From the NCBI GenBank assembly GCA_022449545.1, contig JAKUPN010000010.1, forward strand, positions 3,571-67,570: 64,000 bases of DNA. Direction: 5' to 3'. The notes below the pieces were generated by a model, which had not been told where the DNA came from, searched no databases, and was given only the letters and a program-made list of their open reading frames with translations. Positions within the stretch are counted from its first letter, which is position 1. Each line of letters opens with the position of its first letter. The stretch is from Alphaproteobacteria bacterium. Lineage in GTDB: Bacteria > Pseudomonadota > Alphaproteobacteria > UBA6615. Below, piece after piece: positions 29,707 to 42,636 of this stretch. The position numbers and the translations under genes are program-made.

Positions 29707-31500
29707 TTAATAAACCCTGGTTTTTGGTGGAAAGCTCTGAACCTCATTTGACATTGGTTGTAGGACAACGGGCCGGAAATCAATCTTCGTTTTTCCATTA
29801 TGGTCCACCCAACAAAGAGTATGCTTCATCCAATTGTCGTCATCACGATCTGGAAAGTCTTCTCTCGCATGAGCTCCTCGACTCTCTTTCCTATTAGTAG
29901 CGGATCCAAGTGTTGCTACGGCCTGGGTCATCAAATTATCCAGTTCTAAAGTTTCTACTAGATCGGTGTTCCATATCAGTGATTGATCAGAAACCTTTAA
30001 ATCGTCTAAACCACCCCAAATCTCATCTAACTTTTCAACGCCCTCTTGAAGTACGTCTCCAGTTCGGAATACAGCACAACAGTCTTGCATTGTTCTTTGC
30101 ATTTGTAGGCGTAGATTCGATGTTGGTGTGCTACCATTTGCGTGCCTTAACTTATCAAGACGTTCTAAAGCCTTATCTCCAGCATTTTTTGACAGTGGTT
30201 TATGAGGGGAGCCTGGCGTCACAGTTTCGGCAGCTCTATTAGCTGCAGCGCGCCCAAAAACAACTAGGTCAAGAAGGGAGTTAGATCCCAGACGGTTAGC
30301 CCCGTGAACAGAAACGCAAGCAGCTTCTCCTATGGACATCAACCCAGAAACTGGTTTTGAAGGATCACCGTCTTTAAGAGTAACGGCCTCTCCATGGTAA
30401 TTTGTTGGAATTCCTCCCATATTGTAATGGCAAGTAGGTAGAACTGGGATAGGTTCCTTTGTGACATCTACTCCTGAAAATATTCTTGCGGTTTCTGCGA
30501 TTCCGGGCAGCCGTTGGTTTATAACTTCACCGTCTAAATGTTCCAGATGTAGATGAATATAGTCTCCATCTTCGCCGACACCTCGACCTTCTCGCATCTC
30601 GATAGTCATGGATCGACTAACCACATCTCGACTAGCTAGGTCTTTGGCTGATGGGGCATATCTCTCCATAAACCTTTCACCCTCGGAGTTTGTTAAATAA
30701 CCACCTTCCCCCCTTACTCCCTCTGTTATAAGGCATCCAGCTCCATAAATGCCCGTCGGGTGAAACTGAACAAATTCCATATCTTGCAGTGGAACGCCAG
30801 CGCGAGAAGCCATAGCGACACCGTCTCCTGTCTGTGTGTGAGCTCCAGTACAGGAAAAATAAGTTCGACCATAGCCTCCGGTAGCCACAACTGTTTGATG
30901 GGCTCGGAATCTGTGAATGGAACCATCATCAAGGTTCCAAGCCATCACACCACGGCATTCACCATCTTCCATTATCAAATCTAGAGCGAAATATTCAATG
31001 AAAAACTCTGCGTCAAATTTTAGAGCCTGTTGATATAAGGTGTGGAGTATTGCATGGCCAGTTCGATCGGCAGCAGCACAGGTTCTTTGTGCTGTTCCTT
31101 CGCCGTAATTTGTGGTCATACCGCCGAAGGGCCTTTGGTAGATTTTGCCTTCTTCTGTTCGGCTAAACGGAACCCCTTGATGCTCTAATTCTATTATAGC
31201 AGGCATAGCTTCTCTAACCATGTATTCTATCGCATCTTGGTCTCCAAGCCAGTCTGAGCCTTTTACAGTGTCGTACATGTGCCATCGCCAGTCATCTTCG
31301 CCCATGTTGCCTAATGCAGCGGAGATGCCACCCTGAGCAGCAACTGTGTGGGAGCGGGTTGGAAAAACCTTAGTAATACAGGCTGTCTTTAATCCTTTAT
31401 TAGCCATTCCAAAAGTTGCACGTAAACCGGCGCCACCAGCCCCTATAACTACAACGTCGTAATCGTGATCTATTATTTCATAACTACCATTAGCGGCCAT
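29707..31500 (-). CDS. sdhA: succinate dehydrogenase flavoprotein subunit
   Basis: '[14 protein letters not shown]', '[11 protein letters not shown]' (covalent FAD His), 'HYNMGGI'. Confidence 0.98.
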
Positions 31501-31892
31501 TATGCTCCTCCAAAAGCTATTGAAAGCACCGCGAATAAGGCGGTTAGTGATAATAAAATTGCCGCACCTTTTATAAGGATTAGCAATCCAATTTCAAAAG
31601 GTTTTCTTTTTACGTAGTCTTCAACAACTACCTGCAGTCCTAGTTGGGCGTGATGAAAAGTCAGAACTATAAATAAAATCAAGAAGATGGCTGTAAATGG
31701 ATTTCTAATGAATTCCTTGGCTCCATTATAGTCATTACCAACGGCTAATAATATTTCAATAATAAACCAGATACTAAGCGGAATAAGCCCAATTGCAGTC
31801 AAACGCTGCATCCACCAATGATTAGTGCCTGATTTTGCTGCTCCAAGTCCTCTAGCTTTTCCTAGCGGAGATTGTAAATTCATATCAAACAC
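31500..31892 (-). CDS. sdhD: succinate dehydrogenase membrane anchor subunit
   Basis: Three-TM small protein between sdhC and sdhA, with conserved 'HWWMQRLTA' and heme-ligand His context. Confidence 0.85.
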
Positions 31893-32283
31893 CTCCGATT
31901 AAAGAATAACCAACTATCCAAATTACGAGTGTCAGAACTATCGAAATTATAAGCGTTAACCATCCAGTTTTATAAGCTTTGCTGAGATCCAGTCCCCAGC
32001 CAGCGTCCCAACACATATGTCTTATGCCATTGGCTAAATGAAAGGTGAAAGAGAAGGTCCAGGCAAAAAGCAAAAGTCTTCCAACAATTGAGCTAATAAA
32101 CCAATTAAAGTCGTCATAGTATTGAGGCCCTAACGCGATTGAAAAGAGCCACCAAACTAGAACTAAGGTTCCAACAGCTAAAAAAATTCCAGTCAAACGA
32201 TGCATAATCGAAAGGACGGAAGTTAGCTGTGGTCTATAAATTTGTAAGTGTGGTGATAGCGGTCTATTCTCGGTTCTCATCAA
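31885..32283 (-). CDS. sdhC: succinate dehydrogenase cytochrome b556 subunit
   Basis: 'RPLSPHLQIYRPQLTSVLSIMHRLTG' N-terminal signature. First gene of sdhCDAB. Confidence 0.88.
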   Translation of the reverse strand: MMRTENRPLSPHLQIYRPQLTSVLSIMHRLTGIFLAVGTLVLVWWLFSIALGPQYYDDFNWFISSIVGRLLLFAWTFSFTFHLANGIRHMCWDAGWGLDLSKAYKTGWLTLIISIVLTLVIWIVGYSLIGGV

Positions 32284-32523
32284 GTTTTTTCTCCAGGCTT
32301 TCTCTTGCCTTTAAACTTTGACAGCAATACGAACTAATTATTATTTAGGCTGACTAAATAAAACTTTAAAAGCAAATATCTCAGGGCTTACGCTCTTTCA
32401 AAGATAGTTATAAATTGGTTTAGCCTTGCAAATTGTATTCGTCAATCATACTCCTACTAATATAGTGTTTTTTGGAACAAAAATTAGTCCTAGCGAGCTA
32501 TTTAAATTGTTCTTCGCACAATT

Positions 32524-32574
32524 CTGTGGAAAACCTGTGGAGGAACTGTGTCTATAATTAATAATTATACACAG
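32524..32574. promoter_or_regulatory. phased CTGTG(G/T) repeats plus imperfect inverted repeat; DnaA-box-like sites; contains a TATAAT hexamer
   Basis: CTGTGG at 32524, CTGTGG at 32535 and CTGTGT at 32546 are spaced exactly 11 nt apart. Inverted repeat 'ctgtgt[ct]ataatta-a-taattatacacag' spans 32546-32574. 'tgtggaaaa' (32525-32533, reverse complement TTTTCCACA) and 'ttatacaca' (32565-32573) both fit the relaxed DnaA box TTWTNCACA. TATAAT lies at 32553-32558. The function (operator, promoter or DnaA site) is unresolved. Confidence 0.3.
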
Positions 32575-32599
32575 AAATCTTAACTTCTAGTGATAATTG

Positions 32600-33620
32600 A
32601 AGTTGCCGACCGGGGGTCAAAAGGTGAAACATAGTACCTGCACGCACAAGCGTGACGGCAGACATTGCGCCGTCCTGAAAAGGGATCGTCCGCGATCTTT
32701 ATTTGGGTAGTTTAGCTGACCTAGGGGGGAAAGCTGAAACGAAGGGGTAGCGTCATCTGCGTCTTGTAGAGTAGTTGTTCTTGAACAATGAAATTACGGG
32801 GGTGGGTCAAGTCGGTGAACGGTTTTGCTTTTCGGAGCCCCTTTCCTCAGAGGGATCGTTTGCGCCGGGTCGTTGGGCGCAGCAGGGTGGGTAACTGCCC
32901 ATGTGGACGCAGGCGATCTCCAGTACCCCGTGTCTGGGGTGTAGTTTGGGTCTGGCTGCCTTGTCTTCGGATAGAGGCGCTGATGTGGACTGCGAACTAG
33001 ACATAAGTGAGATCCATCACCCAACTTCGGGCGGGAGATGGAGACCATACTGGGAATACTGGAAACGGGAGGTAGGTCACTACGTTGGCATTTCTCCCTT
33101 GCGACCCTGTCTTAGGACCTGGGTCGTATCAGTTGATAGGGCTTATGCCAAATTGGCTGACGTTGGGTTTGTTTTGCTGCCTTGGTAGATAAAACGAGCT
33201 CTAGGGGGGGCGATGGCGTTTTAATTCCAGGGCACTCGCCGGCCGGGGGTTTTAGCGTAGCCGGAAACAAGGCAAGGACTTTTATAGGTTCTGGCTGGTT
33301 AAGAAGGCAGAAGTAGTTGGCGGCCTCCTGTGGGCGCGGGTTTTGTGAAGGTAGCTGTGTGGACGGTGTAAAAACTAGAAATATAGCACTGCCAGGAACT
33401 AAAAGCGACGTGTCGGCCAGGGGTATGTCGCTTTGGACCAGGCAGATCTGAACGGGACAGTTTGTGAGTGCAATGGTTTGGTCTAATTAAGAGTTTCGGC
33501 TCTTATGTGGCTAAACCAGATGTCTGAAGACTGAAGGGAGTCATCTCTTTATTCGACAGACCTAGGAAGCGTCAGGCGTTACGGGCTCCGCGTCCATGCA
33601 CCTGGCGCTTTCTTATTTTC
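32600..33620 (+). ncRNA. candidate large (~1 kb) structured non-coding RNA, family unknown
   Basis: GC-rich island in an AT-rich genome by hand counts: 38/60 G+C at 32881-32940 and 29/60 at 33361-33420, versus 7/60 at 33781-33840 and 21/60 in a typical coding line. Only short overlapping R/G/P/W-rich ORFs occur, on both strands. At least 15 local helices are visible, including UUCG-capped hairpins at 32827-32838, 32958-32978, 33013-33042 and 33488-33505, and a UCCG-capped one at 32681-32700. G-U pairs are valid only on the + strand. A stem plus U-tract closes the 3' end. The ends are approximate (+/-50 nt). Confidence 0.6.
33568..33620 (+). terminator. intrinsic-terminator-like stem plus U-tract closing the GC-rich RNA candidate
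   Basis: 'agcgtcagg' (33568-33576) pairs with 'cctggcgct' (33601-33609): 9 bp including one G-U. It is followed by 'tttcttatttt'. The 24-nt loop is long for a classical terminator. Confidence 0.45.
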
Positions 33621-34045
33621 TGTGATTGTAAAAAACAAATAATGAATTATGGAGAGCCATACCACCAGAAAGAGGCCCGACAAAGAAATCGGACCCCTTT
33701 ATTAGGCGTTAAATTTTAGCTCCGCATCCAAGCTCGAACAATAAACCTCTTATCAATCGTGAATCGCGTCGGTCAAATAAAATATTTTTTATTTACAAAA
33801 TAATTCAATTTAGTTTTTAGACTATTTAAAAATAATCTGTCTATTTTTCTTAATGTTGTTTCACTAGTAATTATGTTTTTTGTTTCTTGTTAACGAAAAT
33901 ATCGATTAGGTTTTTTGAGATCGGATAGTAATATCATCAAATCGCAAGATGTTATTTTATATTTGGTTATAATCTGTTATTACGTAATCGGTTCCTAAAG
34001 AAAATACTTTACCAGCTTAATATTAACCGCAGATTAAATTCTGAT

Positions 34046-34684
34046 TTGACTGACTATATAATTATAAATGGTTTTATTTTTGGGTTAGTGCTCGCAGCAC
34101 CGGTTGGACCTGTAGGAGTTCTGTGCGTTCAGCGAACGCTTTCAGAGGGGCGCCTTCATGGGATACTGTCTGGATTGGGAGCAGCCTTTGGTGATGCGAT
34201 TTATGGAGCGATCGCAGCGTTTGGTATTAGTGCAATAGAATTGTGGATTGTTGATCATCAAATAGCATTGAGAACGGCTGGAGGTATAATTTTACTTCTA
34301 TTGGCGGCTAAAACTTTGATTGTGACAACGCGTCGATCCTCGGAGTCTAGAGTGGGTGAGGTTCGTACTGAAAGTTTACTGCAGGATTTTATATCAACTT
34401 TTCTACTGGCAATAACTAACCCTATAACTATGTTAACTTTCGCAGGATTATTTGTCACTTTGGGAGTAACTGACGCCGGAGAGTCAATAGGGAATGCCTC
34501 ACTCTTAGTTGCAGGTGTATTTACTGGGTCTGCTATGTGGTGGTTTGCCCTTTCTTTTTCCGCAAATCTTGCTAGACCTTACCTGGATGGTGGTTACCAA
34601 AAATGGGTTTCACGTGTATCTGCAGCTATTTTGGTCGGTTTTGGAGTTTATGCGCTAGCCACTGCTCAGTTTTACCAGGTTTAA
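34046..34684 (+). CDS. LysE/RhtB-family amino-acid exporter
   Basis: About 210 aa and six hydrophobic helices, with an N-terminal 'PVGPVGVLCVQRTL' LysE-type motif. TTG start. Confidence 0.85.
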   Translation: MTDYIIINGFIFGLVLAAPVGPVGVLCVQRTLSEGRLHGILSGLGAAFGDAIYGAIAAFGISAIELWIVDHQIALRTAGGIILLLLAAKTLIVTTRRSSESRVGEVRTESLLQDFISTFLLAITNPITMLTFAGLFVTLGVTDAGESIGNASLLVAGVFTGSAMWWFALSFSANLARPYLDGGYQKWVSRVSAAILVGFGVYALATAQFYQV

Positions 34685-34757
34685 CTTCAAACTTAATAGA
34701 TTTAAAATTGGAATATTTTTCCGATTTCCAATTAAAGAACAGTTACGGATTTGTATT

Positions 34758-42330: not shown

Positions 42331-42339
42331 TTATCCACA
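42331..42339 (+). promoter_or_regulatory. perfect DnaA box TTATCCACA
   Basis: Exact 9-mer in an ORF-free, AT-rich convergent intergenic region. Confidence 0.4.
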
Positions 42340-42627: not shown

Positions 42628-42636
42628 TTATCCACA
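42628..42636 (+). promoter_or_regulatory. perfect DnaA box TTATCCACA (with adjacent degenerate 'aattccaca' at 42616-42624)
   Basis: Exact 9-mer, in the same orientation as the box at 42331, located 17 nt from the plsC stop. Confidence 0.4.

Follow-up and report, generated by a model that had tools for sequence, protein, structure and literature searches.

What does the GC-rich island between sdhC (- strand) and a LysE-family gene (+ strand) encode in contig JAKUPN010000010.1 of an uncultured alphaproteobacterium? The island lies near the middle of the 64,000-nucleotide stretch analyzed here (henceforth the window), and stands out by a GC content of 0.54-0.57, against ~0.35-0.38 in its flanks, and a GC skew of +0.2 to +0.3. 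An earlier, sequence-only reading had seen in it two related modules, A and B, built around one shared helix, along with repeated words of 8-9 nucleotides (nt) that would pair over long distances or bind a common ligand or protein. We find that the island is almost certainly a stand-alone gene for a structured non-coding RNA (ncRNA) of ~980 nt, running on the + strand from ~32640 to ~33620; this assurance applies to its identification as a new structured RNA gene, our reading of its mechanism being far more tentative. The RNA is a new family within the known kind of large ornate bacterial ncRNAs, found in one order of uncultured marine Alphaproteobacteria. It is apparently undescribed before, and literature searches returned no description that matches it.

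The longest open frame within the island has at most 95 codons, those of its homologs agree neither in strand nor in frame or position, and none in the AT-rich homolog L008 is longer than 73 codons. Protein-coding potential was accordingly considered and rejected, since no frame is conserved among the homologs. A search of the element for tRNAs and tmRNA found none, and the element is single copy in its own genome. Among 37 distinct homolog upstream regions, the -35 element is always of the form TTGNNN (mostly TTGC), the spacer measures 17-18 nt and varies freely in sequence, and the -10 element is GAACAT-like (A2, T6). Given where these promoter elements lie in the window (Table 1), the transcript would start near 32640 (GCACGC), which is compatible with the RNA contig starts at 32646-32676. 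The opposite end is marked by an intrinsic terminator, the hairpin of which is near-invariant across genera down to the inner stem GGRC/GUCC and the YCCGC loop.

That the element is transcribed as a unit is evident from metatranscriptomes. Twenty runs from 12 marine and subsurface studies contain 0.31-0.58 of the sampled words of 32300-33900, with 11 of the 20 holding half or more. Contigs from four metatranscriptome studies were placed on 31500-34700; all of them are 100% identical to the window and cover the element (Table 1), and none falls on the flanking 1 kb of genes on either side. Carried-over DNA would be expected to run past the ends of the element, so these contigs represent RNA; the missing flank cover is a control against such carry-over only, and not a measure of the expression of the flanking genes. 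The contigs reveal a discrete and abundant RNA, the exact ends and true abundance of which lie beyond what contigs show.

To derive the fold of this RNA, nine full-length homologs with 51-89% identity to the window were aligned. The resulting consensus comprises 307 pairs, which form 42 helices by the count of the tool and 36 by manual grouping, the latter providing the helix numbers used here. Changes on both sides are seen in 104 consensus pairs, versus 44.3±4.6 in shuffles, and paired cells amount to 94.2%, a share that drops to 88.4±0.3% on shuffling and to 37-48% on sliding the partners; 0 of 500 shuffles of this alignment reach any of the five structure measures. Likewise, the minimum free energy of the window sequence has a z-score of -6.6 relative to its own shuffles. 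The RNA is assigned to the + strand on account of its G-U pairs (40-81 per sequence) and of the alifold energy, which is -330 kcal/mol with 307 pairs for this strand and -166 kcal/mol with 213 pairs for the complement. Many of the hairpins end in UUCG-type or GNRA loops, and covarying long-range helices, such as 33059-83/33313-39, join distant parts of the molecule. Thus, the element combines a length above ~400 nt, a non-coding character and an extensive structure backed by covariation, the features by which large ornate ncRNAs are recognized. A hairpin in 32605-32616, helix 1 of the nine-homolog consensus, was discarded, as it has no covariation and the region is better read as promoter spacer.

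Seen against this fold, the words and modules of the sequence-only reading take on a different meaning. The positions that it reported take in the promoter and the 5' third of the gene. The strings themselves are all present: cgggggtcaaaaggtgaaac at 32611-32630, cgggggtgggtcaagtcggtgaac at 32797-32820, GGGAUCG at 32682-88 and 32852-58, CGAUCUU at 32693-99, CGAUCUC at 32914-20, CCGGGGGU at 32610-17 and 33243-50, GCUGCCUUG at 32955-63 and 33176-84, and aaggcag at 33304-10. CUAGGGGGG does occur twice, at 32721-29 and 33201-09, the end of the second copy having been placed one base too far at 33210, and 'acaaggca' is found at 33267-74, one base from the position reported for it. Nevertheless, compared with dinucleotide shuffles of the 1,025-nt element, the internal repetition inferred from these words is at chance level: there are 16 repeated 8-mers versus 11.0±4.1 (p=0.14), 3 repeated 9-mers versus 2.6±2.1 (p=0.44) and no repeated 10-mers. 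The proposed kinship of modules A and B amounts, in their best local alignment, to the 9-mer AGGGAUCGU, with a score of 18 versus 14.6±2.3 (p≈0.10). Even in the closest relative, the 89%-identical L002, every repeated-word pair is changed in one or both copies. In a sequence rich in G and in helices, these repeated words are coincidental. What had been taken for the start of module A (32611-32630) belongs to the promoter spacer between the conserved -35 and -10 elements and is probably outside the RNA; the first copy of CCGGGGGU also falls within this spacer, and the second is part of the 3' strand of helix 26, where homologs read CCGGGAAU or CCAGGAAU.

The helix said to be common to both modules has a divided fate. 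In A, the hairpin 32682-88/32693-99 with its UCCG loop is real, being the conserved tip of helix 5 and showing compensatory changes, and the helix 5 hairpin is also predicted in 17 class-2 homologs. Its supposed counterpart in B (32852-58/32914-20) is possible in the window sequence but is not maintained among homologs. Over the nine close homologs its pairing comes to 77.8%, with two of the seven pairs disrupted in five to six sequences, and on a pooled alignment of 26 sequences 56.5% of its cells are paired. Its two strands are used elsewhere, GGGAUCG in an element that we call B1 and CGAUCU in another, B2, and we reject helix B because B1 and B2, which are mutually exclusive with it, covary in two independent homolog sets. 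The closing helix of B1 is 98.8% paired in the nine homologs, and B1 is also predicted de novo in the 17 class-2 homologs with compensatory pairs (e.g. CG:9 UA:4 UG:4), the class-2 architecture being a closing helix, a UUCG hairpin, a second hairpin and then a GNRA-capped hairpin. The segment 32867-73/32913-19 of B2 is 93.7% paired in the nine homologs with 3 covarying pairs, and B1 and B2 jointly have 5 covarying pairs, a result that 0 of 500 shuffles equal. As for the two smaller hairpins drawn inside module B, the first competes with helix 13, which covaries, and the second is a mis-registered form of the GNRA hairpin 32885-90/32895-900 (loop GUAA). For the suggested long-range partners of GCUGCCUUG, 33304-10 and 33268-74, the paired share is 57-75%, which is not above shuffles, and no covariation is seen. 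Both copies of GCUGCCUUG instead lie in covarying local hairpins, that of copy 1 having compensatory changes such as UA:4 AU:2 GC:2 and that of copy 2 being 33167-80/33185-99, and the arm that carries copy 1 is absent from most homologs.

One part of the sequence-only reading is borne out, namely that this is a large structured RNA evolving by modules, for its homologs gain and lose whole helices or arms. Homologs are found by BLAST in the same GTDB family, and a two-motif pattern detects the RNA in 40 of 46 genomes and in 15 of the 18 genera of the order, which consists of this single family. An exact scan for the 3' motif across 185,579 species returned 28 records, all of them metagenome-assembled genomes of uncultured 'Rhodospirillaceae' or 'Alphaproteobacteria bacterium', many from ocean surveys. 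Searches beyond the family gave no homolog by BLAST in 16 other families, only chance-like hits in coding sequence when 398 genomes from other families were screened with the two-motif pattern, and no match in 149 other families for a covariance model (R1) built on the helix 32 hairpin, the most conserved hairpin of the RNA; collections of phages, viral contigs and plasmids contained nothing similar. The synteny is strict, with sdhCDA, the element, a pdxY-like kinase gene and lysE in this order and the RNA always beside sdhC. The kinase gene was lost in the genus of the window, which retains the RNA; it is missing in the window, L002 and L008.

Measured from the upstream box to the terminator, the homologs fall into size classes of ~1050, 1035, 900, 855, 714 or 529 nt, to which genus g8 (G009, G023) adds a form of ~1,350 nt with extra UUCG hairpins in the 3' region; G017 (g16) has extra UUCG hairpins too, with a span of only ~1,090 nt. 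The corresponding RNAs would range from ~460 to 1,290 nt. The blocks missing from shorter forms match whole helices or arms, namely 32927-33011 (helices 15-17), which is wholly absent from the ~900-nt and smaller classes, ~33130-33159 and 33475-33517. The minimal form, found in two species, L014 and L027 (the former from G024, a 99%-complete single-contig genome), consists of the promoter, the first few nt and the core from ~33050 on; it lacks A and B entirely, an outcome that the sequence-only reading had itself named as counting against its modules. The existence of such a form shows the RNA to be able to dispense with its 5' domain. All homologs share three invariant elements: the block GGCWCUCGCCGGCC of helix 26, the ACGUAUCGGCCAGGGGU hairpin of helix 32, which is unchanged in 36 distinct homologs, and the terminal hairpin. 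The RNA is thus discrete, abundant, heavily structured and vertically inherited, with a conserved 3' core (33059-33620) and optional peripheral helices, A and B among them, that are gained and lost as whole units. The long homologs L076 and L077 (G023, G009) and L074 (G017), of ~1.0-1.3 kb, carry a run of additional UUCG-capped hairpins that separates the GGCCAGG hairpin from the terminator, along with a variant terminal loop, GGACCCCGCGUCC.

Table 1. Positions of the RNA gene, its control sites, structural elements and RNA contig cover in the window
Feature	Position	Strand	Details
Structured ncRNA gene	32640-33622	+	both ends predicted from promoter and terminator
DnaA-box-like 9-mer cluster	32525-32573	.	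~65-115 bp upstream of the predicted RNA start
Box 1, TGTGGAAAA	32525-33		fits TTWTNCACA in 36/37 distinct homolog loci
Box 2, TGTGGAGGA	32536-44		11 bp after box 1
Half box TGTG	starts 32547		third direct site, 11-bp spacing
Inverted box, TTATACACA	32565-73		exactly 40 bp after box 1 in 34/37 loci
Putative sigma-70-type core promoter	32603-32632	+	-35 TTGCCG 32603-08, 18-nt spacer, -10 AAACAT 32627-32
Helix 5, long bulged hairpin	32673-32708	+	32673-88/32693-708; 13 pairs, 8 compensatory, 93.2% paired
B1, three-way element	32815-32863	+	closing helix 32815-23/32855-63
B1 inner hairpins			UUCG hairpin 32826-30/32835-39; second hairpin 32841-45/32850-54
B2, long hairpin	32864-32924	+	32864-79/32908-24; includes helices 13-14
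B2 cap			GNRA hairpin 32883-90/32895-903, loop GUAA; conserved in class 2
Variable arm, helices 15-17	32927-33011	+	GCUGCCUUG copy 1 in UUCG-capped hairpin 32941-65/32970-93
Conserved core domain	33059-33471	+	in every homolog, including the ~460-nt minimal form
Helix 26 hairpin	33216-33258	+	block GGCWCUCGCCGGCC, invariant in all homologs
Helix 32 hairpin	33389-33445	+	invariant ACGUAUCGGCCAGGGGU; 7-nt loop GGCCAGG with palindrome GGCC
Helix 33, variable hairpin	33475-33517	+	absent from the ~855-nt class and the minimal form
Intrinsic terminator	33564-33622	+	20-bp hairpin (33564-33613) and U tract; near-invariant across genera
RNA contig cover	32646-33585		depth 55
RNA contig cover	32658-33570		depth 315
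RNA contig cover	32676-33540		depth 127-145
RNA contig cover	32651-33536		depth ~3-8 (X9)

Comparison with known families places the RNA beside, but apart from, the large bacterial RNAs described so far. With Rfam 15, no match at the gathering score was obtained in the island or in 15 homolog loci, and at E≤10 nothing appeared in 32300-33900 except for a PrrF-like match downstream of the element (- strand, 33666-33803, 17.9 bits, E=4.7), which is weak and probably due to chance. The nearest systems are therefore likenesses of kind. OLE RNA (RF01071) is similarly large, abundant and lineage-restricted, with many conserved helices and a function that cannot be read from its sequence. However, OLE is an RNA of ~600 nt from Firmicutes that adjoins the genes of its protein partners, whereas the present RNA, of ~460-1,290 nt, belongs to Alphaproteobacteria, has its own promoter and terminator and adjoins no conserved partner gene; the two match neither in sequence nor in structure. 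GOLLD (RF01998) and ROOL (RF03087) are likewise very large ornate RNAs rich in capped helices. They are often borne by phages or prophages, in contrast to the present RNA, which is single copy, occupies a fixed chromosomal site by sdhC and is absent from the phage, viral-contig and plasmid collections; covariance-model comparison with the two families gave no match. GOLLD and ROOL are described as forming RNA-only homo-oligomers (PMC12286853). The raiA motif RNA and the smtA 'Soda Lake' motif, the latter confined to one small lineage, are structured RNAs that emerged from comparative analysis (PMC12968392; PMC11109978). They resemble the present RNA as abundant or large structured RNAs without an assigned function, and differ from it in being much smaller (~200 nt for raiA, >350 nt for smtA), in belonging to other phyla and in lacking homology to it.

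The account of the RNA that we favor, with slightly better than even confidence, is that of a ~980-nt stand-alone RNA that acts in trans as a folded particle and is modulated by DnaA. It would serve as a ribonucleoprotein scaffold or as a self-assembling RNA, with the invariant core elements, namely the loop of helix 26, the GGCCAGG loop of helix 32 and the terminal hairpin, as its functional sites, and the 5' helices would do no more than stabilize the fold. By analogy with GOLLD and ROOL, one may speculate that self-association could in principle proceed through the palindromic GGCC loop, which is invariant. Transcription would proceed from the sigma-70-type promoter, with DnaA at the conserved upstream boxes as its probable modulator. 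The cluster of boxes upstream of the promoter is kept throughout the order, box 1 reading TGTGGAAAA or TGTGGATAA in 36 of the 37 homolog loci, and such TTWTNCACA-type sites at conserved positions are what is expected of a DnaA-regulated promoter. Across the window, relaxed DnaA boxes are not enriched (11 versus 7.7±3.0). The cluster was also considered as a chromosomal replication origin and rejected as such, given that the GC skew of the complete genome G010 changes sign near 3.1 Mb, away from the RNA at 2.45 Mb; GC skew inside the window is uninformative on this point. Elsewhere in the window, an AT-rich spacer contains a pair of perfect TTATCCACA DnaA boxes that share one orientation, at 42331-42339 and 42628-42636.

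Taken as a whole, the mechanistic part of this account is tentative and, in our estimate, less likely than not, and several points weigh against it. DnaA binding is predicted from the sequence of the boxes, and the scaffold or self-assembly idea from the analogy with OLE, GOLLD and ROOL, and there is no conserved neighboring protein gene that would hint at a partner. The invariant elements are, by their very invariance, beyond the reach of covariation tests. Both ends of the RNA are predicted positions, as assembled contigs cannot reveal true starts or ends, and those available stop 33-86 nt short of the end of the terminator. At the 5' end, two pairings compete, the helix 32640-51/33460-71 and the local hairpin 32641-45/32650-54, both of them partly supported, the hairpin by a double change in L008 and the pairing with 33460-71 by changes between size classes; the first 12 nt of the predicted RNA may represent a pair of alternative structures. 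A bolder version of the account, which we regard as rather unlikely, would see here a new giant-RNA class of ~0.46-1.3 kb with a role that may go further than a passive scaffold, for instance a self-assembling particle or ribozyme-like machine built on the three invariant elements and tied to replication via the DnaA boxes.

Other explanations of the locus were weighed against the same body of evidence. The model of two related copies with one shared helix, in which the repeated 8-9-mers pair over long distances or bind a ligand or protein, has in its favor that the strings exist, that GGGAUCG and CGAUCU can pair in the window and that helix B is largely paired in close relatives; with the repeats at chance level, B1 and B2 covarying in its place, long-range pairs no better than shuffles, word pairs lost even in the closest relative and the 'start' of A in a promoter spacer, it is scarcely credible. 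It is also improbable that the transcript is a precursor from which several smaller stable RNAs are cut. The cover of run X10 is indeed split at 33031/33042, and sequencing adapters abut 32676 and 33540, but in two other studies the element is spanned by single contigs of 913-940 nt, and covarying long-range helices tie distant parts of the RNA together.

The position of the RNA, in the same orientation as the downstream genes and ending in a highly conserved terminator that is followed by a second terminator-like hairpin, could suggest a very long cis-acting leader, i.e. a riboswitch or attenuator, for the pdxY-like kinase gene and lysE on the same strand. However, the RNA is unchanged in the genus that lost the kinase gene, it has its own conserved promoter, and the RNA contigs stop at the terminator, with none running into lysE; moreover, we know of no leader with ~300 conserved base pairs over 1 kb. 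We consider such a leader highly improbable. Still less credence, and in fact almost none, is due to the idea that the element is a housekeeping RNA that has diverged, a protein gene in decay or a remnant of a phage or mobile element. Like RNase P RNA, tmRNA and 6S RNA, the present RNA is GC-rich relative to its genome, highly expressed, single copy and vertically inherited, and the 96%-complete assembly of 47 contigs from which the window derives (G000) has no match to RNase P RNA (RF00010), which together with a GC content unlike that of the surroundings might point to such an origin. Yet 42 of 46 relatives encode a normal RNase P RNA at a separate locus besides the present RNA, so that its absence from this assembly is most likely an assembly gap. 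The same assembly encodes tmRNA (C10:16514-16842) and 6S RNA (C1:154240-154397), so that all three housekeeping RNAs are encoded elsewhere, here or in relatives; the present RNA, unlike them, is confined to one order, and no Rfam family matches it even weakly. A decayed gene or mobile element is opposed by the want of a conserved open reading frame, by the single copy and fixed synteny, and by the phage, viral-contig and plasmid collections, which contain no match.

The preferred account, a stand-alone RNA acting in trans, shifts the interest of the locus from its internal repeats and shared helix, which carry little weight, to the RNA that contains them. To our knowledge, only a handful of bacterial RNAs longer than 500 nt with elaborate conserved folds are known. 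Each of the known large ornate bacterial RNAs has opened new biology, and the present one is among the largest of them. Its natural size variants, from ~460 to 1,290 nt, delimit a minimal core and thereby make it a ready target for structure determination, and the corrected secondary structure and boundaries supply what a full covariance model needs. If true, the reading that ties it to DnaA would mean that abundant uncultured marine bacteria possess an RNA specific to their lineage and linked to the cell cycle.

Two further observations concern other parts of the window. On its - strand, 4804-4922 matches the Rickettsia sRNA47 family (RF02800) with 68.2 bits against a gathering score of 60, over model positions 39-157 of 316 only. 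In the region just downstream of the RNA gene (33640-33800), the second terminator-like hairpin lies at 33674-33695 and a ~75%-conserved block at 33690-33786; in other genera this block is found just upstream of the pdxY-like pyridoxal kinase gene.

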